The notes under the pieces were generated by a model. That model had not been told where the DNA came from. It made no database searches and saw only the letters and a list, made by a program, of their open reading frames with translations. The position numbers and the translations under genes were made by a program. From a virus (Duplodnaviria; Caudoviricetes): a stretch of 64,000 nt of DNA. Shown here piece after piece: positions 1-58,416 of this stretch (position 1 is the stretch's first letter; each line of letters begins with the position of its first letter). The stretch lies in IMG/VR virus record IMGVR_UViG_3300028832_000118, positions 25,581 through 89,580 of that record; one strand, given 5' to 3'.

Positions 1-155
1 GCGGTTTCAACACTCATAAAATTCCAAGGTGTCTTTCCGTTTTCCTTAACCCCTCTTAAACCGCAAAATTCACAGCCAAGGTTACACCCCTCAGTAGGTT
101 CAACCTGAATAGAAAATGGAGGCTGCTGTTTGTAGCCATTTAGAAAATCTTTCAT
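1..155 (-). CDS. Radical SAM enzyme, N-terminal part (truncated by the window edge; absent from the ORF track)
   Basis: Manual translation from the ATG at 155 gives MKDFLNGYKQQPPFSIQVEPTEGCNLGCEFCGLRGVKENGKTPWNFMSVETA..., with the canonical CxxxCxxC [4Fe-4S] motif preceded by IQVEPT. Confidence 0.85.
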   Translation of the reverse strand, partial: MKDFLNGYKQQPPFSIQVEPTEGCNLGCEFCGLRGVKENGKTPWNFMSVET

Positions 156-177: not shown

Positions 178-1116
178 TTATCCTTTACTAACTTTGATGT
201 TCAATTTAACTCCCTGCAACTTCTTGTTTTTCGGTACATATTTTTTCAGCTTCGTGAAAGAGCGTGTTTCGCTATCCCAATCGGCATTAGGCTTTTTGTA
301 ATTGATAGTGCATCTGCAATAAGGATGGGTGGGTGAAATAGTTGGCAACCAATCATCCTTCTTCCTGCCTATATTGTTGCCATTAGCTATTATGTCTTTT
401 AGCTTAAAAACTTTGGGCTCGCTTACTCCTATATCGTGCGGAGGTTCAAGATAAAGCTCCGCACATTTATCACAAGCATTTTCGTAAACGTCAAAATACA
501 CTTCCGCATCTTTGCCGTATTTTTTCAATATGCTTTGTGCCCTGCCTGAATTAAACGCTTCATGCGTAAGATAATAGGCAATACGCAACCAATCCACCTC
601 CCAATCCTTGCTGGTCTTGACAAGTTGAGAGGCTAACTGCCTCGCTCCTTGTCGGTTTTGTATAGCCTGAACTGTTTTTTGCTTTATTACCTGCGCAACC
701 ACTGCCGCCTGCTGCTGATTATTTCGCAATAACGAATTTTGAAGGCTGTTACGCATCCTTGCACCTAAATTAGTTATATCGGTATAGGCACGCTGTTTTA
801 CAGTCTGTAAGGCGAAATTTTCAGCCTCCGTTAATGGGACAAAGCCGCCTGAAGCTAAAAACTTTTTGAACTGCGAATAAGTCATATTTTTTGCCCTCGC
901 ATCGTTAAGGGCTTCAGACAATAAGCCAAAAAGAAAAGCGTGTTCAATCACGCCATTCTTATTCTTAAATTTATTTACATCTATCCCAGCGGCTAAAAGC
1001 AACGCTTTATCCTGCTGCGTCAGGAAATCTGCTCCAAGTTGATTAAAGATAAAGTAAATTTCATAACGCTTCAGGATTGATAAGGTGTCCTGTATTTGTG
1101 CAAAGGTAAAAATCAT
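178..1116 (-). CDS. Phage head morphogenesis protein (MuF / SPP1 gp7-like)
   Basis: C-terminal CxxC...HPYCRC motif typical of MuF domains; lies in the structural region. Confidence 0.75.
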   Translation of the reverse strand: MIFTFAQIQDTLSILKRYEIYFIFNQLGADFLTQQDKALLLAAGIDVNKFKNKNGVIEHAFLFGLLSEALNDARAKNMTYSQFKKFLASGGFVPLTEAENFALQTVKQRAYTDITNLGARMRNSLQNSLLRNNQQQAAVVAQVIKQKTVQAIQNRQGARQLASQLVKTSKDWEVDWLRIAYYLTHEAFNSGRAQSILKKYGKDAEVYFDVYENACDKCAELYLEPPHDIGVSEPKVFKLKDIIANGNNIGRKKDDWLPTISPTHPYCRCTINYKKPNADWDSETRSFTKLKKYVPKNKKLQGVKLNIKVSKG

Positions 1117-2609: not shown

Positions 2610-3767
2610 TTAATATCCTGCTGTTTCTACGTTAGAATAAAGTACCATCTTAACATCTTCAGACGGATGAACTGTCGCTGCCGTGCCTAAATTCTTGCCT
2701 CCGTCAAAATCCTTTAATCCATTATAAAAATCACGTATATTTCGGTTGTTTTTATTATTCAGTATAAGGTGCAAACCTCCGCTGGGTGTTTCGTATTTAC
2801 AAGCTACTTTAATATTGGCAGCTTTAAGCCTTCTTTCAGTTTCATCCCATACGTTTACTGTCTTACCATTCGTCATCTTCGCCTGAGTATCTCTCGTGGC
2901 GTCTATATCAAGAAGCACTTTGAAACGCTCGTTTTTCCAAGCTGCACCGCTCTTTGGCATACCATACAAAATCGCTTCTGCATTCTTGACTCTTGGGTCA
3001 TTCGGATTTTTGCCCTGAGTAAATTTCGGCAAATAAGCCTCAGTTTGACTCTGACTACGGGTATTGATGCTCATATACGCACGGGCATTATTGTATTGAC
3101 ACAACTTTACAATATGATTTTTCAATGCCTGCAATTCATCGTAAGAATGAACCAAGTAGTGTTGCAGATACTGAGCCCCTGCGTGATAGCTTCCGTCAGC
3201 CCGTGCGCCAGCCTTCCACGCATCGGCATTAGGTTTATCCTTGTTGTCTTTCCATCGTTTGATAATCTGAATAAAGTAAACATCGTCAGGAGAATTAAAC
3301 TCCATATAGTCTTTTACCATATCAAAATTATCAACTACCATATTAGATTGGTAGCAAACACCATCTTTCTCTAACTCGGATGAGGTGATAACATCGCCAT
3401 AAATACTCTGCCCCGTATCTTGATTGTCGTAATGCAGTCGCCAATTTCCATTCGGGGTGCGTTTCAGCATCATCTTATTTTTATCAGTGTAATTTTTATC
3501 AATGCTGGTATAAATGCTATTCAGACAAGCCATCCCGTGCTTACCATTTACACCCTTTCCAACAACTACGTTTTTAGGACTAAAAACGTGCCAATCAAAT
3601 TTTCCAGGGGCATACTCAGTCCAAACATAGGCTTTACCTTCCCAAATAGTAATATCGCCTACCATTCTCGCTTTTTCAATATCAAGCTCATCGTCAACGC
3701 CAAACGACTTCTGCAAGTTTCGTTCAAGCACCCGTCTATGTCTTTTTAATTCTTCCAAACTATCCAT
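2610..3767 (-). CDS. KSF-leader family protein with a C-terminal AEP/primase-polymerase-like domain
   Basis: Leader ...HRRVLERNLQKSFGVDDELDIEKA, then the WTEYAPGKFDW module, then VLLDIDA (hhhDhD) and YETPSGGLHLIL motifs resembling PrimPol motifs I and II. Confidence 0.5.
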   Translation of the reverse strand: MDSLEELKRHRRVLERNLQKSFGVDDELDIEKARMVGDITIWEGKAYVWTEYAPGKFDWHVFSPKNVVVGKGVNGKHGMACLNSIYTSIDKNYTDKNKMMLKRTPNGNWRLHYDNQDTGQSIYGDVITSSELEKDGVCYQSNMVVDNFDMVKDYMEFNSPDDVYFIQIIKRWKDNKDKPNADAWKAGARADGSYHAGAQYLQHYLVHSYDELQALKNHIVKLCQYNNARAYMSINTRSQSQTEAYLPKFTQGKNPNDPRVKNAEAILYGMPKSGAAWKNERFKVLLDIDATRDTQAKMTNGKTVNVWDETERRLKAANIKVACKYETPSGGLHLILNNKNNRNIRDFYNGLKDFDGGKNLGTAATVHPSEDVKMVLYSNVETAGY

Positions 3768-7374: not shown

Positions 7375-7632
7375 TTAACGTGAATAATTATAACTCGTTC
7401 TTTGGCTCCAAGCAAATTTGAATTCCATAGAGCCTTCAGCGTACTCACGTTTGGTGACATTCCCCGTAACGCTTTCACGCATAATTCTCCATCCTTCATC
7501 CCCCTCGCCTACTCCAAGAGGAGCCCAACCATAATATTTAACAGATGCAGAAACGACATCTTCAAAAGGTGCTGGCAGATATTCTTCAAAAGTTTTTACC
7601 AGCGGTGCTGCAATTTCATTCATTGTATTCAT
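7375..7632 (-). CDS. Small virion-associated protein, 85 aa
   Basis: YxGWA...WRIxR...AW...R...Y pattern that I recall from small phage structural proteins; overlaps the portal stop codon. Confidence 0.45.
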   Translation of the reverse strand: MNTMNEIAAPLVKTFEEYLPAPFEDVVSASVKYYGWAPLGVGEGDEGWRIMRESVTGNVTKREYAEGSMEFKFAWSQRTSYNYSR

Positions 7633-9368
7633 TTTACATTATTTTTTAGAAAGTTATCAAATGCTTTTACTAATTCATCATCCTCTGCTTTTTCTTCATC
7701 CTCTCCATCCTCCTCATATTCACCTAAATCGTCAAAGGGGTTGTAGTCGCCTCCATCTTCGGTTTCCTCTCCCCCTTCTCCAACAAAGGGATTATCATAA
7801 CCACCTTCATCTTCGCCTCCCCCCATCATACCGCCTCCCTGCTGCTGGGCAAAAGCTGCCTGACTCTTTGCCTGCATATAGGTTGGGTTACTCGGTATAT
7901 CACCAAACTCCAGCGGCTCTAAATCGTATTTTTCACGCAATTCGTTTATGGTCATAAATGATTGACCCTTCTTTATATCTATATCAAGTTCTTCACTAAT
8001 AGTTAATCCGTTAAGCCCAACAAAACAAAATTCAAATTCGGGGTTTATCTGCTCTACAATATAGCGGTTAATTTTCTTTTGTATAAATTTCAATAACGGA
8101 TACAATCCTTTATCCTTACTATGTTTCAGTCGCTGCTCCTGACTGCTCTCAAACATTCCCGTGCTGCCTGCTGAGCGTGCAATATCCCATCCTATCTCGG
8201 TTGGGTCAATAGCGTAAATTGAGCAAGCTAATTTTATCAGATACTCTAACCAAGCGTTGTACTCCATATCTCGGTTAGATTTTTGCATATCAATCCAATC
8301 AACGTCAGCTTCTACTACGGGTGTTTTCCAAGCCTGCATAACTCCCGTAATCATTGACTGCCACTGCTGACGGAATTGCTGTAACGCTGATTCATTATTC
8401 GTACCCTTGACTCTCAAAAATCCCTTCGGGGCTGAACCTTGTGAAAAGAAGCGTCTATTGTATTCATCGCTCCACAACATACTCGTTACTACGTTTATCA
8501 GCTCTTCCAGCTCTGAGCATCCGTACCCGTTAGAATGAATATTAGAGCTTGGGTTTCTGATACCAAAGCAAAGCTCCCAGGGATAAAAGTCATTAACCTT
8601 TACACTCTGATAAACCTGCACATAGGAGGGATAATAACCATTTATCTTTTTGCCGTATTCAGCCCTATCATCCCAAACCATAGAGCCGTAACGCTTAAAA
8701 AATTCATTCTTGTAATCCTCGCTGAAATATGAGTCTGCAATTCGGAAAGTAGAAGCATCCACCGCCTTAAATGAATCAATCTCACCCCTTCGGTTTCGGA
8801 TAATCTCAAAGGTCATCTGGTCGTAAATAAGTGAATCATTAGTTATCTTTCGGATAAAGGTATCAAAATCATCATTATTCCAATTGCTCGTATTTCCGCC
8901 ATTCATCAAAAAATTAGTTATAGCATCAGCAGTTTTTTCATCCTCCTTCGTCATTTTCTGCTCTTTCCCCATCTTGGGTTTCTTTCGGATAATAAAACCT
9001 GTTGAATATCTATTTTCCTGCGGCTCGGCAAAGTCAGCAATTTGATTTTTTCGTGTTTTAATAATAGCGTTAATCACGGGTACTTTGCTCATTTTCAACA
9101 GCGTGGTATAGGTGAGTGAATACGGCTTATCCTTATAACCCAAATTAGCATTAAATTGTAATGGGTCAATTAAATAAGCCTTCGTTGGTACGCTATTATT
9201 CTTATCCATTTCCTGAAGCATCTTACCAGCCCTAATAATATCATCGGGGTTGCTGCTCTTCATCGCTTTCTCAATAGTCAGCATCCGCTTCACGTCCAGC
9301 TCTGCCTGCGTTTTGGATATATTATCTAATTCCTTTGAATACGACATCTTAATATTTTTTTTACTCAT
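7629..9368 (-). CDS. Portal protein
   Basis: 579 aa; motifs DxxTFR, YGxSxLE, NxxFFxQGSAPKGFL, YxIDPxEIG; acidic C-terminal tail. Confidence 0.9.
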   Translation of the reverse strand: MSKKNIKMSYSKELDNISKTQAELDVKRMLTIEKAMKSSNPDDIIRAGKMLQEMDKNNSVPTKAYLIDPLQFNANLGYKDKPYSLTYTTLLKMSKVPVINAIIKTRKNQIADFAEPQENRYSTGFIIRKKPKMGKEQKMTKEDEKTADAITNFLMNGGNTSNWNNDDFDTFIRKITNDSLIYDQMTFEIIRNRRGEIDSFKAVDASTFRIADSYFSEDYKNEFFKRYGSMVWDDRAEYGKKINGYYPSYVQVYQSVKVNDFYPWELCFGIRNPSSNIHSNGYGCSELEELINVVTSMLWSDEYNRRFFSQGSAPKGFLRVKGTNNESALQQFRQQWQSMITGVMQAWKTPVVEADVDWIDMQKSNRDMEYNAWLEYLIKLACSIYAIDPTEIGWDIARSAGSTGMFESSQEQRLKHSKDKGLYPLLKFIQKKINRYIVEQINPEFEFCFVGLNGLTISEELDIDIKKGQSFMTINELREKYDLEPLEFGDIPSNPTYMQAKSQAAFAQQQGGGMMGGGEDEGGYDNPFVGEGGEETEDGGDYNPFDDLGEYEEDGEDEEKAEDDELVKAFDNFLKNNVK

Positions 9369-14241: not shown

Positions 14242-14429
14242 TTACAAATCTTTATATTCATATTTTCCAATTCTAACTTTTTGCCCCAAAAAATTAGTAG
14301 TATATTCTTCAAACTCTTCAATTTTATCACCCGTAATTAAATAATTACTATTTTTTGCTAATCGGTAGAAAAAGATTTAATTATGTTCTCCTGAACTGAT
14401 AATCTATGTAATTGTATTAAATTTTTCAT
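14242..14429 (-). pseudogene. Frameshifted fifth member of the KSF-leader family
   Basis: MKNLIQLHRLSVQENIIKSFSTD* stops at TAG (14358-14360); adding one T (GAT TTA GCA AAA) gives a 62-aa ORF ending at 14242. Confidence 0.65.
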
Positions 14430-14435
14430 AAGATT

Positions 14436-15113
14436 TTATTTTGCATAATCCTCTTTTATCATATCAAAATCTACATCAAAACCATAATTCCAATTGGGCG
14501 TACTCTTTTTTATTTTGAAAAACGTATCTTTATCAAGTTTTCCATCTTTAATCAATTTACCAATTTTTTTATAAAATTTAACATCAGCCGCTAATGCCGC
14601 ATCTTGGTCAAAATTATCGTCTTTATCATACGCTTTATCATAATCTTTTTCCAATTGAGAAAAAGCAGCTTTCAAGTCATTAACAACCTTATTATCGTCA
14701 TCGCCATTATCCTTTCTCTCGTTACCCTCCTTCGGCACAACCATCTTTCCGCCTCCCTTTATATCATAATTGCCATCCTTCTCGTTCCATTTCTCATCGG
14801 GGTCAAAACCTAATTCCTCAAAAAAATCCTCCTTAATTTTCTTACCATTTTTATCGTAAATCTCAACCCAAGCATCCTCATCCTGCAATTGCATACCACG
14901 AGGCACTTTTACAGAAGCGGTTTTTTCTTTCCCCTCTTTTTTCTTAATTACTCTCCAATCAAATTTTCCTGGTGCATATTCAGTCCAAACCTTTTTACCA
15001 TCGCTGCTAATATCTCCAGCGACACGGGCTTTTTCAATATCTGCTCCAAAACTCTTTTTCAAACACTCCGCAACCATTCTGCGGTGGCTACTAATAATGT
15101 CGTTAATTTCCAT
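14436..15113 (-). CDS. KSF-leader family protein with WTEYAPGKFDW module, 225 aa
   Basis: ...SHRRMVAECLKKSFGADIEKARVAGD...GKKVWTEYAPGKFDWRVIKKKEG. Confidence 0.6.
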   Translation of the reverse strand: MEINDIISSHRRMVAECLKKSFGADIEKARVAGDISSDGKKVWTEYAPGKFDWRVIKKKEGKEKTASVKVPRGMQLQDEDAWVEIYDKNGKKIKEDFFEELGFDPDEKWNEKDGNYDIKGGGKMVVPKEGNERKDNGDDDNKVVNDLKAAFSQLEKDYDKAYDKDDNFDQDAALAADVKFYKKIGKLIKDGKLDKDTFFKIKKSTPNWNYGFDVDFDMIKEDYAK

Positions 15114-15146
15114 AATGTATAAAGTTTTATTATTGTTTTATTTTTA

Positions 15147-15812
15147 TTATATGTACCATCCTACAAGTCTTGCATTTTTTTCACTTATAAAATGCTTGCT
15201 TATATTACTAATTACCCTTCCATCAAGTCTTTTTAATCTCCAACTTCCATTATCATTTTTTTCTAACCGAACATCTTCGGGATTAACTCCACTCTTACCA
15301 ACTTTATCTAAAACATTTTTAATAACAGAATTTACCTCCCTCTTTGCTTCTGAACTCAATTTTTCATATTTTTTATCAAAATCAGATTTAGTCTTACCAT
15401 CTACGTCAGTATATTTATTAAAATAAATCATATCACCTACTACCTTACCAATTTTTTTATCGCTTACAGAAAGTTTAACATCATCAAATTCCGTAATTTT
15501 AACACTTGCGCCAATTATCTTAACCAAATCATCTTCATTATCGGGATAAGGCATAAAATATTTGAACTGCTTATAACTTGAAGACGTATTTTTCTCAACT
15601 CCATACTTTTCATCAATATTTTCTTTTTCTCCCTCTTTTTTCTTAATTACTCTCCAATCAAATTTATTCGGAGCGTATTCGGTATAAACTAATGTTTTCC
15701 CGTTTACCACCTTTGTATCGCCTGCTACGTGGGCTTTCTCTATATCGCCTTCAAACGATTTTTGAATATTATTTACAACAGCTTTTCTATGTTCTAAAAT
15801 AAGATTTTCCAT
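15147..15812 (-). CDS. KSF-leader family protein with YTEYAPNKFDW module, 221 aa
   Basis: ...EHRKAVVNNIQKSFEGDIEKAHVAGD...GKTLVYTEYAPNKFDWRVIKKKEG; shares about 35 identical bp with the 14436 gene. Confidence 0.6.
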   Translation of the reverse strand: MENLILEHRKAVVNNIQKSFEGDIEKAHVAGDTKVVNGKTLVYTEYAPNKFDWRVIKKKEGEKENIDEKYGVEKNTSSSYKQFKYFMPYPDNEDDLVKIIGASVKITEFDDVKLSVSDKKIGKVVGDMIYFNKYTDVDGKTKSDFDKKYEKLSSEAKREVNSVIKNVLDKVGKSGVNPEDVRLEKNDNGSWRLKRLDGRVISNISKHFISEKNARLVGWYI

Positions 15813-15850
15813 AATATTATAATTTTGATTTTACTAAAAAATAATAGCTG

Positions 15851-17563
15851 TTAAATGAAAGTATATTTAAATCCCGTGGTAATAATGTTAGCACCTAACT
15901 TTGCAAGCCAAAAGGAGGATGAAATATCATCGTGCTCCCCTACGCTCTCTAACCCCTTATCAGTAAAAGCAACCGAACCCAAATCCGAAAAAATCAAATC
16001 TTTTATATCCTGCGAATATCTATCACCAACGGGAATATGAATTTTAGAACGCTCAAAATCTATTGCAAGTCCAGGCCAACCAGTCTTTAAGTCGTACTTA
16101 TCAATACCAGTGGTATGTCCTACAACGGGCAATCCCTGCCTATCTGTTTCCTGCACAAAAATCTGCTGAAATACATTATCTTCCAGCACCATTGTATTTG
16201 GTCTAAATCTCACGTTAATGCCCTTCAATATCTGCACCTGCTCGTGGAATGTTCTGCCTTTGCCCCGTTCTAAATTCAGCAGCCATCTTTCACCGCTTTC
16301 GTCATCCACTCCCCAAGTAGAAAATACATAATAGTCTGAACCAACATTGCCACTTATAGCAAAATCGCATCCCGTAACCACTTTATTAAACTTTATCGGA
16401 AAATCATCCCTATTACGCACCAAGCAGTAATTTTCCATCCTTACTAACGACTTCTCCAATATCTTTAAGGGGAATATTGATGACTCATTCGTAATCGGTC
16501 GGCAAAGATTTTCACGGCTGAAAATGATATTGCCCTGCGTGGCTCGCTTCTCCATAAGGTCGTGAAAACTCCAACGCTGAGGCCATAGTATTCTGCCGTC
16601 AGGAAATATAGCGGGATATTCAATAACAAACCAACCACGCTTTTTATCACGGCTGGAAATCTCCTCACTTTTACTTTTCAAGTCGCCATAAAGGTCAAGA
16701 CTATGAAACGGGGTGCCAACTACTATTATCTGCCCGCCAGGGACTAACATATTCATAATTACAGAATGAAAATAATCAATGTTTTTCTGACGCTGCAATG
16801 ACGAATAAATCACGTTATCCTTTAATCCATCATCTACTATTATCCAATACGGGTGAGCACCACGGACAGAACTGCCAAAACCCTTACACGTCAACCTCGC
16901 CCCGTTTTTACAAACAATATTCGTACTTGCCCAAGCTCCACTCTTGCTATCAGGCATCAACCTCTCCTTCAAAATATCGTTGCTTTCAATATTAGTTTTC
17001 AAAATCTCCATAAGGTCAACTGACTGCTGCAAAGAGAATGAAAAGAGGTAGCCACGATTGGAGGTTGATTTTGAAGGTCTGCGTGAATATACCTTTCGGG
17101 TTGGCTTGGAGTAGCGGTAAAGCTGCCAAGCTGGATAGGCATTGGAGAAGTAATATGATTTACCATGGTCGCGTGCCGCCTCTATGCACAATTTGTTATG
17201 CTTATGCACTAAATCCCCCCATTCCAAGTGATGCCAAGACAACTGAAAATCAGGCAAAACTGAAGTAATAAAGTAAGACAGATTTTTACACCGCAATATC
17301 TCTTCCACTGACTCAGCCAGTCGGTCGGTGTACTTTGGTGCAAAATCTACGCTATTATTGCCCGTAAACATAACATTATAGGTATCTTTCATTAAGTTAT
17401 CAAGCACGACATCTAAATCTCCACCATAGCCTGATGCAAGCTCTAAAATACCTGCGTCATCCATATTGTCTATTATGTCATCTATGATATTTAAGCACTC
17501 TATTTGGTGCAGGGGACTTTGTAACGCTATTGCCATAATCTTATAAATAAAAAGATTTTCCAA
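15851..17563 (-). CDS. terL: Terminase large subunit (the start may be 17536)
   Basis: Walker A IEAARDHGKS, Walker B IIVDDG, VVGTP, nuclease CDFA...HDDI; no intein seen. Confidence 0.92.
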   Translation of the reverse strand: MENLFIYKIMAIALQSPLHQIECLNIIDDIIDNMDDAGILELASGYGGDLDVVLDNLMKDTYNVMFTGNNSVDFAPKYTDRLAESVEEILRCKNLSYFITSVLPDFQLSWHHLEWGDLVHKHNKLCIEAARDHGKSYYFSNAYPAWQLYRYSKPTRKVYSRRPSKSTSNRGYLFSFSLQQSVDLMEILKTNIESNDILKERLMPDSKSGAWASTNIVCKNGARLTCKGFGSSVRGAHPYWIIVDDGLKDNVIYSSLQRQKNIDYFHSVIMNMLVPGGQIIVVGTPFHSLDLYGDLKSKSEEISSRDKKRGWFVIEYPAIFPDGRILWPQRWSFHDLMEKRATQGNIIFSRENLCRPITNESSIFPLKILEKSLVRMENYCLVRNRDDFPIKFNKVVTGCDFAISGNVGSDYYVFSTWGVDDESGERWLLNLERGKGRTFHEQVQILKGINVRFRPNTMVLEDNVFQQIFVQETDRQGLPVVGHTTGIDKYDLKTGWPGLAIDFERSKIHIPVGDRYSQDIKDLIFSDLGSVAFTDKGLESVGEHDDISSSFWLAKLGANIITTGFKYTFI

Positions 17564-17607
17564 GCCTAAATAGCGTGGAAAATCGTGTTGTAAACTAATT
17601 TAAGGGA

Positions 17608-18366
17608 CTAACCCCGTATTGACTTTTTCAAATCCTCTATAAACTGTTCTAAAATTTTATCCTTATCTGTCCCATCCTTATTAACGGCTGCGCATTCATA
17701 TTTCAGATATTGGGCTGCTACAACGCTAATATCGCATTCAAGCTCATTCTTCAAATTATCCACAATATCCTGCTCGTCAAAAACAAATCTAAACTCAAAA
17801 CCCTTGCCGCCCTTATTGCCAATCTTATCCGTAAATTCAACGTAACCAAATGCGGATAGCATCGCCAAAACATCGGTAGCCTGACTATGGCTCATAGTAG
17901 TTAGCTTGACTACCATGGTACGTGTAAACACAGGGTATTTCTTTTCCAGCTCAATCGGTGCATTCCGTGTAAGAATATTCCACAGCTTCATCTGATGTTC
18001 CTTCGCCATCTTTCGGTTTCGCTCGTTTCCAAGGAATTGAGAAATGGCGTCAATATTGCTACGCTTCTCACCTCTCTCTTTAAGGTAATCAAATATCACC
18101 TTATCATCCAAAGCAACTACCTCAACCCCATTTGCACTTGCATATTCAGCAGCTACTTTTTTTACACTCGGATTCAAGCAAGCCATAATCAAGACTTTTT
18201 CTTCAGGCTTCTGCTCCGCTACTGCTGCCACTTCCTCTTCTACTAATGGTGTTTCAGGTGCTTTTTCTTTTGTTTTAGCCGTTTTGGTCTTTGCGGTCGT
18301 ACTCTTTTTAGTTTTTTTCTTTTCAGGCTCTTTAACAGCCTCTTTTACGTTTTTTTCTTTTTCCAT
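17608..18366 (-). CDS. Hypothetical protein with K/T/E-rich N-terminus
   Basis: 252 aa ORF. Confidence 0.6.
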   Translation of the reverse strand: MEKEKNVKEAVKEPEKKKTKKSTTAKTKTAKTKEKAPETPLVEEEVAAVAEQKPEEKVLIMACLNPSVKKVAAEYASANGVEVVALDDKVIFDYLKERGEKRSNIDAISQFLGNERNRKMAKEHQMKLWNILTRNAPIELEKKYPVFTRTMVVKLTTMSHSQATDVLAMLSAFGYVEFTDKIGNKGGKGFEFRFVFDEQDIVDNLKNELECDISVVAAQYLKYECAAVNKDGTDKDKILEQFIEDLKKSIRG

Positions 18367-18371
18367 AATTC

Positions 18372-18461
18372 TTATTTTTTACAAACTAAACAAACTTCTT
18401 TCCCGTTTACGATTTTCACTGATGCAATACAACAGCACCGCTTGCAGAATTTGAATTTCAT
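18372..18461 (-). CDS. 29-aa Cys-rich micropeptide (zinc-ribbon-like)
   Basis: MKFKFCKRCCCIASVKIVNGKEVCLVCKK; ATGA overlap with the upstream stop codon. Confidence 0.5.
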   Translation of the reverse strand: MKFKFCKRCCCIASVKIVNGKEVCLVCKK

Positions 18462-18790
18462 CCCTTTATAGGTTTTAAGTTATAACGCTGATAAATCTCA
18501 TTCAACCACTCGCATTTTTCGCCACGCCTCTCTAACTGACTTATATATGTTTTAATTAAAGGGATTGAAATTCTTTTAGGCTTCTCCCCTCCCTTGATAT
18601 TGAACTTTTGCTGCGCAATAGCTATCCCAGCCTTCAGCCCTTCATTATATACCACCACCTCATTTTCCCCTCCGTACACGTAAACATACGCCAGCAGTTT
18701 TGCAGCGAAAGAATTATTCATCATGCTCGCTCCTATGCAATTAAATGCAGCCTCCATCTGAGCTGCCAGCTGATATGTGTTATCTTGCAT
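18458..18790 (-). CDS. Hypothetical protein
   Basis: 110 aa ORF, coupled to its neighbours. Confidence 0.55.
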   Translation of the reverse strand: MQDNTYQLAAQMEAAFNCIGASMMNNSFAAKLLAYVYVYGGENEVVVYNEGLKAGIAIAQQKFNIKGGEKPKRISIPLIKTYISQLERRGEKCEWLNEIYQRYNLKPIKG

Positions 18791-19337
18791 CCTTAACCCT
18801 AATTTGAACTGTTTTCAAAAACTCTATAAACTGCAACAAGTAGGGTTCAACCACCTTATAAATTGCAGAGCTTTTATCATCATCCTGATATGGGAATTTG
18901 AAGCCGCCCATAAATTTTGCGACTGCCGCCCGTATAGCGTCAACCCTCCTACAATTTTTTACATCCTCCATAGCCTCCGCAAAGGCACGCCCAGCGGTCA
19001 GGAATATATCAAAAACATAAACCTTCACACAAAGCTCCAAATCATCCCTCCTTACGTTTTTTGCCATAGCGTTAAACACGTTGGTATAAATATACATAAC
19101 CTTATCATAAGTCGTATCTACAAGCTCACAAATAGCGTCTTCAGTCGTTTTATCGTTATCCCTGCTTACACTACGCCAAAAACTTGAAAACTCTGCATTT
19201 ACATCACCCCAATAGTAACGCTTAAAAGCGTCATTTTTCATAGTATAGATATTGACCCAATAATCGTTAGCCAATCGGATAAAGAACATGCTGATGAGCC
19301 TTATGCGTGCCTGACTATTTATGATATTCGCTTCCAT
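18780..19337 (-). CDS. Hypothetical protein
   Basis: 185 aa ORF, coupled to its neighbours. Confidence 0.55.
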   Translation of the reverse strand: MEANIINSQARIRLISMFFIRLANDYWVNIYTMKNDAFKRYYWGDVNAEFSSFWRSVSRDNDKTTEDAICELVDTTYDKVMYIYTNVFNAMAKNVRRDDLELCVKVYVFDIFLTAGRAFAEAMEDVKNCRRVDAIRAAVAKFMGGFKFPYQDDDKSSAIYKVVEPYLLQFIEFLKTVQIRVKDAR

Positions 19338-19339
19338 AA

Positions 19340-20002
19340 TTATTTAGCACACTTAAATTCAAAAAACTCATCCCCCTTCTTTCTGCCATCCTCCCCCGCA
19401 CCTACTACAACCGCCTTATCCGCTCTCAGCTTCTTAACGTACCAACGCAACAAATCGGCGGTCGCCTCTACATCGTTCATAGCTCCGTGCGCATCCGTCA
19501 GTTTCACCCCTGCACGCTTGCAGCACATTCCAAGATTCAATTTTGCCTCTCTATCCGTACCCCAAGCCAGCTTGCCAATCGCAAACGTGTCTATGAAATT
19601 CGGATGGTGGTAGTGAAAAAATCCTCCCTTTGCGCCTGCGTATTTCAAAGCACAATCTACAAAACGAATATCAAACGGGACATTATGCCCTACGGCAATC
19701 AACCGCCCCAGCTCCCTATTCTTTGCGCTCGCCTGCCATTCATCCCACCAGCCCGTAACCGCATCAACAAACTCTTTAATATTCACCCCACTATTTATAT
19801 CAGACATGCTTACCATAGTAGATTTAAGCGCAATCGGCTCTATGGTAAGATTGTTATATGGCTTTACAAAAGTTTCAAATCTATCCTTAACCTTTAACGT
19901 ACATCCATCCAGCACCATTGCCGCATACTGGGTTATAGGGTTTCGGGTTTCGTCAAGCCCTCCCGTTTCAACGTCAAAAACAATATAGTCGCTCTTTATC
20001 AT
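19340..20002 (-). CDS. DEDDh 3'-5' exonuclease (DNA Pol III epsilon-like)
   Basis: VFDVETGG (ExoI), VGHNVPFDI (ExoII), AHGAMNDV (ExoIII). Confidence 0.9.
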   Translation of the reverse strand: MIKSDYIVFDVETGGLDETRNPITQYAAMVLDGCTLKVKDRFETFVKPYNNLTIEPIALKSTMVSMSDINSGVNIKEFVDAVTGWWDEWQASAKNRELGRLIAVGHNVPFDIRFVDCALKYAGAKGGFFHYHHPNFIDTFAIGKLAWGTDREAKLNLGMCCKRAGVKLTDAHGAMNDVEATADLLRWYVKKLRADKAVVVGAGEDGRKKGDEFFEFKCAK

Positions 20003-20041
20003 AATTCTCTAAATCTGCATTATTAGTAGTAGTAACGATGT

Positions 20042-20278
20042 CTATTTTTTATACATCTTATCCAAATGCTTCCAACCAAGCACCTTATATTTCCAACCAC
20101 CGCCTCTCTTAACGTAAATTTTTACATAGTTTTTCAAATCCCATTTTTGCTCATCAGCAGGCGCAACCTTCGCCAGCTCCCCCCGTTTCAAATCCATATA
20201 TTTAACCATAAATTCAGGTAAACTCTTGGAAATGTTCAAAAACTTTGGTAAACTCTCTTTTGTTAAAATCGCTTTCAT
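20042..20278 (-). CDS. Hypothetical protein (start re-called at MKAILTK)
   Basis: The ORF-track start at 20338 lies inside the HU terminator; the ATG at 20278 follows the promoter motif. Confidence 0.55.
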   Translation of the reverse strand: MKAILTKESLPKFLNISKSLPEFMVKYMDLKRGELAKVAPADEQKWDLKNYVKIYVKRGGGWKYKVLGWKHLDKMYKK

Positions 20279-20308
20279 ATCTCGTTTTTTAATTATTATT
20301 CTACAATA

Positions 20309-20323
20309 AATAACTTTGGTAAA
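20309..20323 (-). promoter_or_regulatory. Phage promoter motif copy (TTTACCAAAGTTATT)
   Basis: Identical 15-mer also at 30536-30550 and 47318-47332; directly follows a terminator. Confidence 0.65.
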
Positions 20324-20325
20324 AT

Positions 20326-20355
20326 AAAAAAACCCCAATTTTATATTGGGGTTTT
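20326..20355 (-). terminator. Rho-independent terminator after HU
   Basis: Stem AACCCCAAT/ATTGGGGTT plus a T run on the minus strand. Confidence 0.75.
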
Positions 20356-20383
20356 CATTTGAAGCAATGGCGTGAAAATAAAC

Positions 20384-20680
20384 TTACTTCTTTGCTTTAT
20401 TTTTTGTTTCAACCACTGCCTTAACAGAAGCGGTCGGGGTAAATTTAATAGTATGACTTTCGGGGACATCCATAGGCTTCTTGGTCAATGGATTGATACC
20501 CTTCTTGGCTGGATTGACTTTCTGCTTAAATCTGCCAAGGCTGGGGATGTTTACTTCGCCACCTCTATCTCTGCACTCGGTAATAATTACCTCTGTAAGA
20601 GTGTTAATGGCTTCGTTCACCTGTGACTGCGACAATGAACATTTTCCTGCAACTTCTTTTAACAATTCATCTTTTTTCAT
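20384..20680 (-). CDS. hup: HU/IHF-family DNA-binding protein
   Basis: MKKDELLKEVA...VNIPSLGRF...GINPLTKKPMDVPESHTIKFTP. Confidence 0.92.
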   Translation of the reverse strand: MKKDELLKEVAGKCSLSQSQVNEAINTLTEVIITECRDRGGEVNIPSLGRFKQKVNPAKKGINPLTKKPMDVPESHTIKFTPTASVKAVVETKNKAKK

Positions 20681-25184: not shown

Positions 25185-25909
25185 TAGAATATATTTTTCA
25201 ATTTACAAAATCCATTATTATCATAATCCATCCTTCTCCACCATACCCTACATTTTTTTTCAAACCAATCCTCTTTGCCTAAACGCTGAAGATGGGCTTG
25301 AATAAGGTTCATTATTATCGGGATAGGGTAAAAATAGCGTTCCTTGGTAAATAGGTTTATTCCGTCATAATCAAAACCAGCAATACAAATGCACTTTTTA
25401 CCAATATCGTTTTTTTCGTCAAATACGGGGTGAAGATGATTTATAGGGATAATCTTACCACCTACGCTATTAAACAGCCTCAAATCGGCTTGTTTTGCCC
25501 TCAAACGGGGGTTTTCGCTACGTGCAACCTCAAAGAAAAGCACGCTTGGGTCAAATCCCTTATAATGAAGACGGGATAAAACTAATTTCAACCCTACTTT
25601 ATAGAGGTCATTTCCAATCCCACTCTCTCGCCAGCTCTCCTCAACCGCAATAGCAGATAACATCAACCCGTTGCACCGCTCAAAATAATCGTAAACCGCC
25701 AGCCCTACGGGAATATCAAAATTCCAAGCTAAAACAATAAACACTTTCGGCTCATCTGCATGTAGTCGGGTGACAATCTGATAAAAATCCTCTTTTAGAG
25801 TATCGGGAATTGAAGATTGATAGATGGTGCTGAACCGCTCTAACGGCAAAATATTTTCCAAATGATTTTCACTCGTTATTAGTTTGAATGATAAATTTCG
25901 CTGCTCCAT
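25184..25909 (-). CDS. GNAT-family acetyltransferase (start re-called at MEQRN)
   Basis: LSAIAVEESWRESGIGNDL acetyl-CoA-binding motif A; the ORF-track N-terminal extension overlaps the upstream gene. Confidence 0.7.
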   Translation of the reverse strand: MEQRNLSFKLITSENHLENILPLERFSTIYQSSIPDTLKEDFYQIVTRLHADEPKVFIVLAWNFDIPVGLAVYDYFERCNGLMLSAIAVEESWRESGIGNDLYKVGLKLVLSRLHYKGFDPSVLFFEVARSENPRLRAKQADLRLFNSVGGKIIPINHLHPVFDEKNDIGKKCICIAGFDYDGINLFTKERYFYPIPIIMNLIQAHLQRLGKEDWFEKKCRVWWRRMDYDNNGFCKLKNIF

Positions 25910-26692: not shown

Positions 26693-27310
26693 TTATGCGG
26701 TTTTTTTCGCTGTTCTCTTGGCTCTGCGTGCCGCTCTCTTTGCCTCTGCCTGCGTGCGCGCCAAATACGCTGCATAAAGGGGGCTTTTAATTGACTTCCA
26801 ATCGAATTTTCCTGGTCTCCACTCTAACCAAGCCCACTTGCCATTTTCATGAATGTCGCCTTCGTTATGCTTATTTTCTTTACCCCCGTGCCACTTCCCG
26901 TTTTTACTCTTCCAATCGCACTTGCCATTCCCAAGGTCAGTCCAAATCCACTTCCCGTTAGGATGCACCTCACCAACCACGTGCTTCGGGGCTGCACCTC
27001 TCTTGGCAGGCTGGGCGGTGGTATCGGTTTTCTTTGCCTTCGGTGCTTCGGCTTTCTTGGTCTGCTTCTTAGCAGGTTTAAGGGCTGCAATGTAAGCCTC
27101 TACATACGGGCGCAATTCTGCCAGCTCGTTAAATTTTTCGCATAAATCCAGCTCACCCTTTAAGGCTTGCAGATTATCTGTTTCAAATAAAATACGGGTG
27201 GCAAACTCTTTGCGCATACGGGCGGCTGGTCTGCGGCTATTGCTAATAGCGGACATTTTCACGTTAGCAACTTCATTGAATTTTGCGGTGGCGGTTTTTT
27301 TCGTTTCCAT
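26693..27310 (-). CDS. Basic K/A/R-rich early protein with two GKWxW...GKxDW modules
   Basis: HVVGEVHPNGKWIWTDLGNGKCDWKS and HNEGDIHENGKWAWLEWRPGKFDWKS; no KSF leader. Confidence 0.6.
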   Translation of the reverse strand: METKKTATAKFNEVANVKMSAISNSRRPAARMRKEFATRILFETDNLQALKGELDLCEKFNELAELRPYVEAYIAALKPAKKQTKKAEAPKAKKTDTTAQPAKRGAAPKHVVGEVHPNGKWIWTDLGNGKCDWKSKNGKWHGGKENKHNEGDIHENGKWAWLEWRPGKFDWKSIKSPLYAAYLARTQAEAKRAARRAKRTAKKTA

Positions 27311-55683: not shown

Positions 55684-56121
55684 TTACAAAATACGCAAAA
55701 TGTCTTTCTTATCGGCTTTGAAAACTATCGGCAATGAATTTTCTCCTCTTTTACTCTTCAAATACACGAAATCCTCAGAAATGCAACCATCTGCCAACTC
55801 GTATATATTGCCTTGGAATGAAAATTTATTTCCCTCTTTATAATACATAATCATATCTTCAACGCTCATCCCTCCCCTTATTACCCCATTTTCAAACACT
55901 TCTGCGCTAATGCTCTTTTTCAATTCAGCATCCGTGAAAATAGATTTAAGGTTGTTACGCTGGGCAATATCATTTATTTTCCCACGTTTATAGTTCATTA
56001 ATCGTTTGTAAAATGTCTTATCCTTGGGAGAAAAATAAATCTTGCTTCTGAACTCCGCTATTAAATATTCCCTCTGCAATACTTCAAAGTAATCCGCTGG
56101 CGATAAATTACGTGTTTTCAT
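55684..56121 (-). CDS. Hypothetical protein coupled to the primase
   Basis: 145 aa. Confidence 0.6.
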   Translation of the reverse strand: MKTRNLSPADYFEVLQREYLIAEFRSKIYFSPKDKTFYKRLMNYKRGKINDIAQRNNLKSIFTDAELKKSISAEVFENGVIRGGMSVEDMIMYYKEGNKFSFQGNIYELADGCISEDFVYLKSKRGENSLPIVFKADKKDILRIL

Positions 56122-57083
56122 CTCTTCAATTTGCCAATAATATTTTCGTTAAACTCGTAAGGTTTGTAAAACTTTTCAAATACCTTCAAAGCCTCATCCT
56201 CCGTACACTCATCAATATCCTTCTTCGTTGTAAAAGTTATACTTGTAAAAAAAGTTTTATCTAACTCCACCCCTATCCTCTTTATATCGCTTATAGCGTC
56301 AAAATCATATAACAACACCAACCGCCCTACCTGCTTTTCAACCAGCTTCGCAACCTGCTCTCCCGAAATCTTTTTGCCAAACGTACAGACGCACTTTATT
56401 TCATCCTGCCACCTCAACTTCAAATACCTATCAACCGCAATTTTATCAAAAATGCCCTCTACCAAGATAACAATTTCAGTCTTACCCTTAATTATCTCAT
56501 CATATCCGTATAAGAGCTTGGAAAAGTTAGTGCCAGGTGAGTTCTTATATCTTGGCACTCCATCAGGCACCTTTGCCCCCCTATACCTGCCAACCCAACC
56601 TCTAATCTCCCCATCGTCATAAACGGGCATAATAACATAATCCTTATATTTTCTCAACAATGCCGTGCCGCCTATCTTGTAATATTTAATCTCCTCTTTG
56701 CTCAACCTCCTATTCAATAGATATTCATCGTCAACAGATACCCTAAAACCAACTGGCAGCTTTAAGACGGGCAATTTATCCACCTTTACCTCTTCAGGGG
56801 CTAAATCAGCTTGTTTTTGCCCACGTATGCTAATTATTTCACTTTTATCCTCAATCGTTCTACCTGCAAGCAGAAAAGTTTTATCTAAAAATTTCAATAA
56901 TTTATAGACATTGCCATTCTCTCCACACTTTTTGCAATCCCAAAGCTGGGTGGACTTGGAAATATAAAAATGCTTTTCCTTACCACAAAATGGACAATCG
57001 CATATATATTGCCCCTTCGTATTCAATTTAGGGTTCAAAAGCACCCCTTTCAAATCCTCATCACTAATCTTCATAATCTTCAA
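56118..57083 (-). CDS. dnaG: DnaG-type DNA primase
   Basis: Zn finger CPFC...HFY...CKKC; YKNSP; TOPRIM LVEGIFD and YDFDA. Confidence 0.9.
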   Translation of the reverse strand: MKIMKISDEDLKGVLLNPKLNTKGQYICDCPFCGKEKHFYISKSTQLWDCKKCGENGNVYKLLKFLDKTFLLAGRTIEDKSEIISIRGQKQADLAPEEVKVDKLPVLKLPVGFRVSVDDEYLLNRRLSKEEIKYYKIGGTALLRKYKDYVIMPVYDDGEIRGWVGRYRGAKVPDGVPRYKNSPGTNFSKLLYGYDEIIKGKTEIVILVEGIFDKIAVDRYLKLRWQDEIKCVCTFGKKISGEQVAKLVEKQVGRLVLLYDFDAISDIKRIGVELDKTFFTSITFTTKKDIDECTEDEALKVFEKFYKPYEFNENIIGKLKR

Positions 57084-58416
57084 TTATTTCAAATGTGCGC
57101 TTTCGGTCGTAAAATCTGCTGTATGCAAAATTATTAGCAATCATAATTGGTGTACCATTCTTATGCTCCCTGAGCTTGTCGGTATGGAGGCGCATTATCT
57201 CATCCTTTGCCTCGTCACGTGTCTGATTTATGGTAACGAAAATATCAAATGGACGGATTTTGCCCTTATCCTCCGAAAGTTGGGCACGGGTAATAACGAA
57301 CTCTGGGTCGTTCTTCAAATCTTCGGGAATATTACAGGACTGCGTGGCGGTATGAACTACGGCATTAAACTCCATCGCTAACATCTTCATACCACGTGCC
57401 AACTTTGCCTGACGGAAACGCTCTTCAGATGGCGTATAGTTATGCCCATCGCCAACCTCCAGCAGCTCTAAATAGTCAATTAGTACAACATCAATCTTGC
57501 CATACTTCTTTTCCATTTCCTTTAACTCCCTACGTACATCAACAAGCGTCTTTGCGTTAAAGGTTTCTTCACTGCTTACAATGATATCACTCTTTCTCAG
57601 CTTTTCAATTATCTTTCTGCTTACATCTAACTTTTTCTCCGTTATATTGCCAAGCTTCATATCTTTATAAAGAGTACCCGTCCAAGCGGCATCGTATCTA
57701 TTCAAACACTGCTCTTTTGTACCCTCAAGCTGAAAATGTGCAACTCTGAACCCCTGCCGTGCGGCTGCTATGCCTAAATGCACTAAACACTGACTTTTAC
57801 CTGCACCGCTATCACCTAACCAAAGCACACATTCACCCGTTTCCACCCCTCCATTCTCACCGCCTAATCGGTAATCAAGCTCATCAATGGCGGTCGGTAT
57901 CTTATATCTCTTATTCCACCCTTCACTCTTTCGCCTCGTCTGCCTTAATTCAAAATCAGAAAAAACAGTTTCAAATTTAGCATCCTGAATAGTAAACTTG
58001 GAAAAGTCATCCGCATATTTAACAAACAAATCCCAAGCGCCATCCCTATTCCCCTTGTTATATAAATCGGTAATCCTATCATTAGCGTCTAAAAATAACA
58101 TCTTCTTTACATAAGCCTCAAATTGTCTAACTACCTCTTCAAAGCCTATATCATCAATATCAACTTCAGACACCTCCAAGTAGAGGTCTAAAACCTTTTC
58201 ATCCTCTATAAAGTTCTGACGTATCTGACCGCTCGTTGGTATCCTGCCCGTTTTATCGTAACGGGTAAAAATCCATTTAAGCAGCTTCTTTTCAGCCTCC
58301 GTCTGCAAATAGTTATATTTTAGATATTTCCTGATAATATCAAAGAATTTAACATCATTCAAAGCGTAAGCGAAAATTTCAATAACGAAATCGCTTGCCA
58401 ATATTTCATTGCTCAT
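57064..58416 (-). CDS. dnaB: DnaB-like (SF4) replicative helicase
   Basis: WLGDSGAGKS, FQLE, VLIDYLEL, HTATQ, KLREHKNG. Confidence 0.88.
   Translation of the reverse strand: MSNEILASDFVIEIFAYALNDVKFFDIIRKYLKYNYLQTEAEKKLLKWIFTRYDKTGRIPTSGQIRQNFIEDEKVLDLYLEVSEVDIDDIGFEEVVRQFEAYVKKMLFLDANDRITDLYNKGNRDGAWDLFVKYADDFSKFTIQDAKFETVFSDFELRQTRRKSEGWNKRYKIPTAIDELDYRLGGENGGVETGECVLWLGDSGAGKSQCLVHLGIAAARQGFRVAHFQLEGTKEQCLNRYDAAWTGTLYKDMKLGNITEKKLDVSRKIIEKLRKSDIIVSSEETFNAKTLVDVRRELKEMEKKYGKIDVVLIDYLELLEVGDGHNYTPSEERFRQAKLARGMKMLAMEFNAVVHTATQSCNIPEDLKNDPEFVITRAQLSEDKGKIRPFDIFVTINQTRDEAKDEIMRLHTDKLREHKNGTPIMIANNFAYSRFYDRKRTFEIIEDYED

Follow-up and report, generated by a model that had tools for sequence, protein, structure and literature searches.

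The window analysed here is a 64,000-nucleotide stretch (positions 25,581 to 89,580) of IMG/VR virus record IMGVR_UViG_3300028832_000118, the genome of a gut Bacteroidota phage, and the element in question is its minus-strand open reading frame (ORF) 2610-3767, whose translation is a protein of 385 residues (P0001). Three parts, all read from the minus strand, can be distinguished in this protein: a leader or putative propeptide (residues 1-34; 3666-3767), a Trp-rich module followed by a small alpha/beta part (residues 35-139; 3351-3665) and a C-terminal domain of 246 residues (residues 140-385; 2613-3350) which resembles the nucleotidyltransferases belonging to the superfamily of archaeo-eukaryotic primases (AEPs). 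The best explanation of this architecture, held with moderate confidence, is that of a three-part cargo, i.e. an AEP-like enzyme tagged for the head, packaged there and ejected together with the DNA; as to its parts, it is quite probable, judging from sequence, that the domain is a divergent AEP, and somewhat probable that head targeting, the best reading of the leader, is correct.

An exhaustive HMMER search with residues 140-385 yielded 348 cluster representatives at E<=1e-3, and conservation was assessed on an alignment of 50 diverse family members sharing 24-62% identity, in which R171, R229, D287, D289, G331 and L376 are invariant, while K173, N235, H333 and Y377 are conserved in at least 90% of the sequences. 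Every motif quoted in an earlier interpretation of the same DNA (the sequence-only reading) is present in the ORF, including, in the domain, DVYFIQIIKRWKDN (residues 162-175), LCQYNNARAYMSIN (222-235), KVLLDIDA (283-290; window 2898-2921) and YETPSGGLHLIL (325-336; window 2760-2795); since they are conserved across the 50 relatives, the quoted motifs are not due to chance. The catalytic core of the AEPs comprises an N-terminal alpha/beta unit and a C-terminal unit derived from the RNA-recognition-motif (RRM) fold (PMC4538821), and the domain shows hhhDhD, sxH and hD in an order and at distances that agree with the definition given there. In particular, the candidate for motif I, KVLLDID (2901-2921, minus strand), carries the sequence V284-L-L-D287-I-D289, with both Asp residues invariant and placed at the end of a strand, and the candidate for motif II, SGGLH (2769-2783, minus strand), contains G331-L-H333, with the Gly invariant and the His conserved in at least 90% of the members; both assignments draw on conservation, on the structural model and on hhalign, which aligns the former motif to DFD/DxD and the latter to sGxGaH in AEP-TOTE and Prim-Pol. 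The candidate for motif III, E370-D371 (2655-2660, minus strand), precedes the LYSN strand and comes from the family alignment: D371, the candidate third acid, lies 38 residues after the His, and its position is occupied by Asp in nearly all the long and mid-length members of the family, mostly after I, V or F; the hhalign alignments end before it.

The comparison with known AEPs was carried out by running a profile of the 50-sequence family in hhalign against 13 AEP-TOTE and 14 Prim-Pol domains taken from genomes. The scores obtained were 28.7 (P 0.0018) with AEP-TOTE and 26.7 (P 0.0024) with Prim-Pol, as compared with 12.9-17.0 for reversed and column-shuffled targets, and the one local alignment obtained for each AEP family has LLDID opposite motif I and TPSGGLH opposite motif II. 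The proposal of the sequence-only reading that the DxD and GGLH motifs represent AEP motifs I and II is thus supported above the scrambled controls; the label of bifunctional PrimPol that went with it is too specific for a protein without a PriCT, zinc-finger or helicase module. The AlphaFold2 model of the domain, built on the same 50-sequence alignment (predicted local distance difference test score, pLDDT, 95.2; predicted template-modelling score, pTM, 0.90), displays an N-terminal alpha/beta unit (residues 146-270) and a C-terminal RRM-like unit of beta-alpha-beta-beta-alpha-beta topology (residues 283-378), where D287 and D289 are predicted at the C-terminal end of beta1 (domain-model strand 145-149) and G331-L-H333 in the hairpin that links beta2 to beta3 and at the beginning of beta3 (domain-model strand 193-197). 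In a scan of 48,161 chains, independent of Foldseek, almost all the top matches cover the generic RRM-like unit alone (model residues 144-232), and the chains listed as aligning over both lobes are AEP primases. Clear matches among the BFVD viral models are uncharacterised members of the family, such as that of Campylobacter phage CP21, and the weaker ones (probability 0.28-0.77) are the primase-helicases Replication protein B, DUF927 and VapE; in the ESM Atlas, PF22548 AEP-TOTE occurs in 15 of the 30 nearest clusters, which is to be taken as a lead only. Taken together, weak but concordant evidence suggests homology to the AEPs. Among the families considered, InversePrim was rejected (there PriCT-1 precedes the primase, and a helicase is present), and a search for PF16793 in 251 Bacteroidota genomes and in the controls gave no match.

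As to the leader, a basic amphipathic helix (residues 2-21) and KSFG (20-23) precede the DIEKAR junction (29-34), and a further short helix (27-31) is predicted over DIEKA. The idea of leader-tagged cargo, already put forward in the sequence-only reading, is borne out in that the leader is common to four minus-strand ORFs and its junction recurs in the protease-scaffold protein of the phage; besides the target gene, the tagged ORFs are 1119-2534 (471 residues, ..NIEKSFGIDIEKAR.., with a payload of no known identity), 14436-15113 (225 residues, having both the leader and the Trp module in common with the target) and 15147-15812 (221 residues, ..NIQKSFEGDIEKAH..). DIEKA occurs five times in the proteome of the genome, against 0.059 occurrences expected: four lie at residues 23-33 of these four ORFs of the head region, and the fifth is found at residue 239 of a 472-residue protein (genome 17085-18503, outside the window and 7.1 kb before its start) which joins a prohead protease (Peptidase_S78) to an acidic linker and, C-terminally, a part resembling a scaffold. 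Across 30 homologues of this protein the site ..DI[EQSTV]KAYEALGL never varies at D, I, K, A and Y. In 40 homologues of the target protein itself, the segment ahead of the junction is poorly conserved and anything from about 20 to about 60 residues long, E31, K32, A33, G37 and D38 show no or almost no variation, and everything downstream is conserved; this combination of a variable leader with a conserved junction and mature part is the pattern expected of removed propeptides. The tag, moreover, is shared by several payloads, not just by the four ORFs of this genome: in nine related phage loci the junction, in the form [ILF]EK[AG][HRK]..GD, is carried by several neighbouring ORFs per locus, sometimes just 5-8 residues from the ORF start. 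Prohead proteases are known to cut the N-terminal propeptides of internal head proteins (PMC10052503), and head targeting is favoured because of the junction statistics, the site in the protease-scaffold protein, the variable leader, the related loci, the SPO1/Twort-like capsid and the precedent of phages T4 and SPN3US.

Some side observations concern the same elements. The invariant DIxKAYEALGL site directly precedes the acidic linker of the protease-scaffold protein, as self-processing would predict, and residues 59-69 of the major capsid protein (..KVESLEKTLKH..) resemble a [DE]x[IL]EK[AT] junction, so that, on sequence grounds, a capsid propeptide may be cut at this site. A truncated minus-strand frame holding the leader only (MKNLIQLHRLSVQENIIKSFSTD, then a stop) lies at 14242-14429 between two cargo genes, and looks like a decayed fifth cargo gene. 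The Trp module, which has no known fold, follows the pattern GD..G..WTEYAPGKFDW (WTEYAPGKFDW at residues 49-59), with beta hairpins at residues 39-61 and then the small alpha/beta part; it represents a mobile unit distinct from the leader, being found twice, as GD.HPNGKW.W....GK.DW, in a leaderless minus-strand ORF at 26693-27310 and once at the beginning of a 631-residue ORF (genome 21374-23269), preceded there by ..ILEKAQHNVGD.

The mechanism that may be envisaged starts with the leader of about 30 residues, ending in DIEKA-R, which would act as a head-assembly tag bringing the protein into the prohead, where the S78 protease would probably remove it. In the C-terminal domain, a catalytic core of two units, D287 and D289 would bind the metal, H333 of the GLH motif would bind the nucleotide, D371 would be the probable third acid and the conserved basic cluster formed by R171, K173 and R229 would bind phosphates. 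We infer that the capsid would house the mature enzyme, which, once ejected along with the DNA, would carry out nucleotidyl transfer on nucleic acid ahead of the expression of any phage gene; its most likely substrate would be the incoming base-modified genome, with synthesis or extension of primers at ends, nicks and gaps, an action analogous to that of the primases sent into recipient cells by conjugative plasmids. In its strongest form, this proposal describes an active AEP primase-polymerase which is injected with a hypermodified genome, primes, extends or heals DNA before gene expression and depends on a new, modular [DE][ILF]xKA leader, read by an HK97-type prohead protease and able to load arbitrary enzymes; stated in such terms, it is doubtful.

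The existence of a separate DnaG primase, asserted in the sequence-only reading, is confirmed by the 321-residue product of minus-strand ORF 56118-57083 (phrog_47 'DNA primase', E 5.8e-40; phrog_19, E 1e-46; Zn_ribbon_DnaG, 24.5 bits), which adjoins a gene for a DnaB-like helicase (57064-58416; DnaB_C, 60 bits), and the phage also encodes a DnaE-type polymerase. DnaG-like and DnaB-like genes are likewise present in all three of the related near-complete phages tested that possess leaderless forms of the protein, and the hypothesis that the family provides the sole primase of such phages was rejected on these grounds. True AEP primases and the replicative AEPs of mobile elements nearly always possess a PriCT, zinc or helicase module (PMC5862659); given the presence of DnaG and DnaB and the lack of such partners, an accessory role, and not that of a replicative primase, is therefore likely.

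Several observations weigh against a packaged AEP-like enzyme. The hhalign probability of the domain against the AEP families is just 12-15%, as compared with 91% (score 49.7) for AEP-TOTE against Prim-Pol; the AEP hidden Markov models PF09250 and PF22548 match nothing in the genome, even with the threshold relaxed to E<=10, Pfam, NCBIfam and PADLOC have none for the protein or its 50 relatives, and no PriCT, zinc or helicase accessory domain was found in the protein by Pfam. Of the structural check suggested in the sequence-only reading, the prediction step gave a confident model, but Foldseek of this model against the PDB returned no match below E 0.018. D371 is preceded in the target by Glu (E370) and not by a hydrophobic residue, and its position is taken by N or E in several forms of about 200 residues, which have an acid four residues upstream; a comparable deviation is known, since in RepE/RepS the motif III Asp is replaced by Gln, the motif II His being itself family-specific (PMC5862659). 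The domain, furthermore, is basically an intracellular enzyme, because most members of the family are leaderless, bare proteins of about 210 or 250 residues encoded beside PolA, PolB or PNKP genes. Finally, when polyvalent proteins that are co-injected were surveyed, Toprim and Primpol domains turned up in conjugative elements only and never in phage versions, the argument being that phages need transcription, and no priming, at entry (PMC5512222).

The family comprises at least 348 clusters at 50% identity, in phages of 73-390 kb from gut and marine Bacteroidota and also in Firmicutes-type phages; many of the relatives are proteins of 200-260 residues starting at a DNFD motif, and the domain corresponds to PHROG 14949, of function not known, and has no Pfam entry. 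Sequence and profile searches of the PDB gave only spurious Top7 matches, and a profile search of a 5.8-billion-protein set gave only unannotated relatives among the matches listed. Around the leaderless forms (108 ORFs at 21 loci) the neighbours include DNA_pol_A (7), DNA_pol_B (4), AAA_33 (4), HAD_PNKP (3), NADAR (1) and ADP-ribosylglycohydrolase (1); in Cellulophaga phage phi17:2, a co-oriented block (record 14720-20415) holds the family member gp033, the CCA-adding enzyme gp032, the PARP-family protein gp031, the ligase gp029 and the methyltransferase gp028, and looks like a cassette for the repair of RNA or DNA ends. Since the leaderless forms sit in neighbourhoods of nucleic-acid metabolism, an accessory role in repair, extension or RNA repair is as plausible as priming.

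It may be asked, then, whether the protein enters the virion at all. If it does not, the leader and the Trp module would form an interaction, regulatory or localisation module, tethering an AEP-like enzyme for example to DNA, to a replication/repair factory or to the outside of the assembling head, and the enzyme would do its work late, within the infected cell, as its bare relatives in replication and repair neighbourhoods do; the doubling of the Trp module in the leaderless ORF 26693-27310 speaks for such a possibility, which is nonetheless unlikely in view of the location of the gene inside the head module, of the recurrence of the junction at a conserved site of the prohead protease-scaffold protein and of the resemblance of the variable leader and conserved junction to a removed propeptide. 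To much the same degree improbable is a third arrangement, in which an enzyme of the AEP fold acts on RNA or on a NAD/ADP-ribose-linked nucleic-acid end, serving tRNA/RNA repair or counter-defence and not DNA priming; if packaged, such an enzyme would pre-empt the attack of the host on the translation apparatus. The phi17:2 block, where the CCA-adding tRNA nucleotidyltransferase, the PF00644 (PARP) protein and the ligase follow gp033, the PNKP, NADAR and ADP-ribosylglycohydrolase neighbours found elsewhere, the presence of DnaG and DnaB in all four near-complete genomes (this phage and three others) and the nearest language-model clusters, which are AEPs of conflict systems, are all in keeping with it, as is the prediction of divergent AEP domains in RNA-repair systems, according to the passage of PMC5862659 that cites Burroughs and Aravind 2016. 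Nevertheless, DNA polymerases are the commonest neighbours of the family, no RNA-repair gene adjoins the target gene in this window, and a fusion partner of about 340 residues found in other members shows no similarity to the PARP-like gp031 of phi17:2.

The remaining alternative denies the AEP assignment itself: the domain would be an alpha/beta protein of two lobes, one of them of a generic ferredoxin/RRM-like kind, with DxD and GxH as mere mimics of AEP motifs, and its role would be either that of another enzyme dependent on metal or that of an internal head protein which binds nucleic acid without catalysis. The matches confined to the RRM-like lobe are what such a protein would give, but the chains listed as aligning over both lobes are those of AEP primases, both motifs are picked up by each of two independent AEP profiles at scores well above those of the shuffled controls, and acidic, His and basic residues that stay invariant at 24-62% identity would argue for catalysis, so that this alternative is very improbable.

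The fusion partner just mentioned deserves some comment. The AEP-like domain is recurrently fused, in both orders, to this conserved domain of about 340 residues, characterised by the motifs LYHRP, YTGxNGGNMYGPGVY and RGIIYxGxxDGxCA, which is N-terminal in P0124, P0129, P0152, P0159, P0203, P0273 and P0282 and C-terminal in P0271, and occurs also at L028:6945-8672; it is a Rosetta-stone link to a partner of no known function. Its interpretation as a PARP/ART-like domain, prompted by LYHRP and NMYGPGVY, is unsupported, with no PDB sequence match and no usable Atlas match, and hhalign detected no similarity to phi17:2 gp031 or to the 822-residue ORF of this phage. In jumbo phages (up to 390 kb) forms of about 250 residues carry an N-terminal helix of 20-30 residues (..LTExDIxYMVxExxxxILSE..), seen also on adjacent unrelated ORFs (L021/L022:6871-8702, L040:6206-8681 and L041:7636-8792), which may represent a second, different targeting or propeptide tag.

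The genomic setting of the gene is that of a head module. The source record is a virus contig of 89,580 bp whose final 127 bases recur near its start, and is therefore probably a complete circular assembly; all the long ORFs of the window are on the minus strand. The portal protein (7629-9368, minus strand; phrog_12, E 1e-50) is encoded upstream of the target, in the same direction of transcription, and a MuF-like minor head protein (178-1116, minus strand; Pfam Phage_Mu_F, E 0.0016, and phrog_115, E 0.0008, both weak) two genes downstream, with the leader-tagged ORF 1119-2534 in between; the target gene is flanked by the portal gene on one side and by the MuF-like, protease and capsid genes on the other. 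The major capsid protein (phrog_752), encoded beyond the window at genome 15575-17059, is SPO1/Twort-like, with phages of Bacteroides thetaiotaomicron as nearest cultured relatives; the closest in terms of capsid are Bacteroides phages SJC03 and the DAC series (44% identity of the major capsid protein), which are absent among the tblastn hits for the target protein. The full-length protein has 344 homologues, mostly 60-82% identical, on phage contigs of 90-125 kb. Also within the block of head genes, with the MuF-like gene on one side and the protease gene on the other, are the genes of a radical-SAM protein (window 1-155, minus strand, continuing to genome 24767-25735) and of a glucosyltransferase-like protein (phrog_842; genome 23274-24779).

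If the proposed reading is correct, the protein may be a nucleic-acid-synthesising enzyme of AEP type injected by a phage, a situation known for conjugative plasmids and not for phages. Both the AEP superfamily and leader-targeted head cargo are kinds already known; a head-loaded phage AEP would be new, because the above survey found co-injected primase domains in conjugative elements only, and it would contradict the published generalisation which restricts co-transferred primase domains to such elements (PMC5512222) and enlarge the small set of injected polymerases by a new class. The family would be a new minimal one within the AEPs, always found alongside a DnaG primase (four of the four near-complete genomes tested), and this co-occurrence would suggest that large phages carry out some accessory nucleic-acid transaction not yet recognised. 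The leader with its junction would represent a candidate for a compact tag by which HK97/SPO1-like heads are loaded, of use in engineering phage-delivered enzymes.

Among the known systems, the closest solved structure is the RepB' primase of plasmid RSF1010 (PDB 3h20 and 3h25; PrimPol-PV1 supergroup), with which no sequence similarity is detectable. RepB' has a Gln in motif II and a PriCT-1 domain after the catalytic part (PMC5862659), whereas the target has a His, ends 14 residues past D371 and contains about 70 additional residues of helical insertions; the features by which the RepB'-like, PrimPol-PV1 replicative primases are recognised (PriCT-1/2, zinc or helicase, and Gln in motif II) are lacking in it. 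The likeness to Prim-Pol (PF09250) and AEP-TOTE (PF22548) consists in the alignment of hhDhD and sGGxH to motifs I and II with the same spacing of about 40 residues, and of the named clusters in the ESM Atlas those of AEP-TOTE lie closest; the target differs in being without helicase, PriCT or TOTE (TPR, OB, TBP) partners. With regard to packaging, the T4 internal proteins and Alt, which bear the capsid targeting sequence, and the propeptide-bearing ejection proteins of SPN3US/phiKZ-like phages share with the present system a short N-terminal tag, placed on several unrelated payloads of the head module and ending at a motif found also in the prohead protease or scaffold, with the expected removal of the tag and ejection (PMC10052503). 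Where T4 has gp21, the present phage has an HK97-type Peptidase_S78 joined to a scaffold; the junction is [DE][ILF]xKA[RHY] instead of LxE/AxE, and a Trp-rich module follows the tag. Primases are co-transferred in conjugative DNA transfer (PMC5512222), and although the Sog and TraC1 primases of conjugative plasmids are Toprim enzymes acting on transferred single-stranded DNA, and the virion RNA polymerase of N4-like phages is a T7-like RNA polymerase, both resemble the arrangement proposed here in that a template-directed nucleotidyltransferase is delivered together with the genome, before gene expression (PMC5512222).
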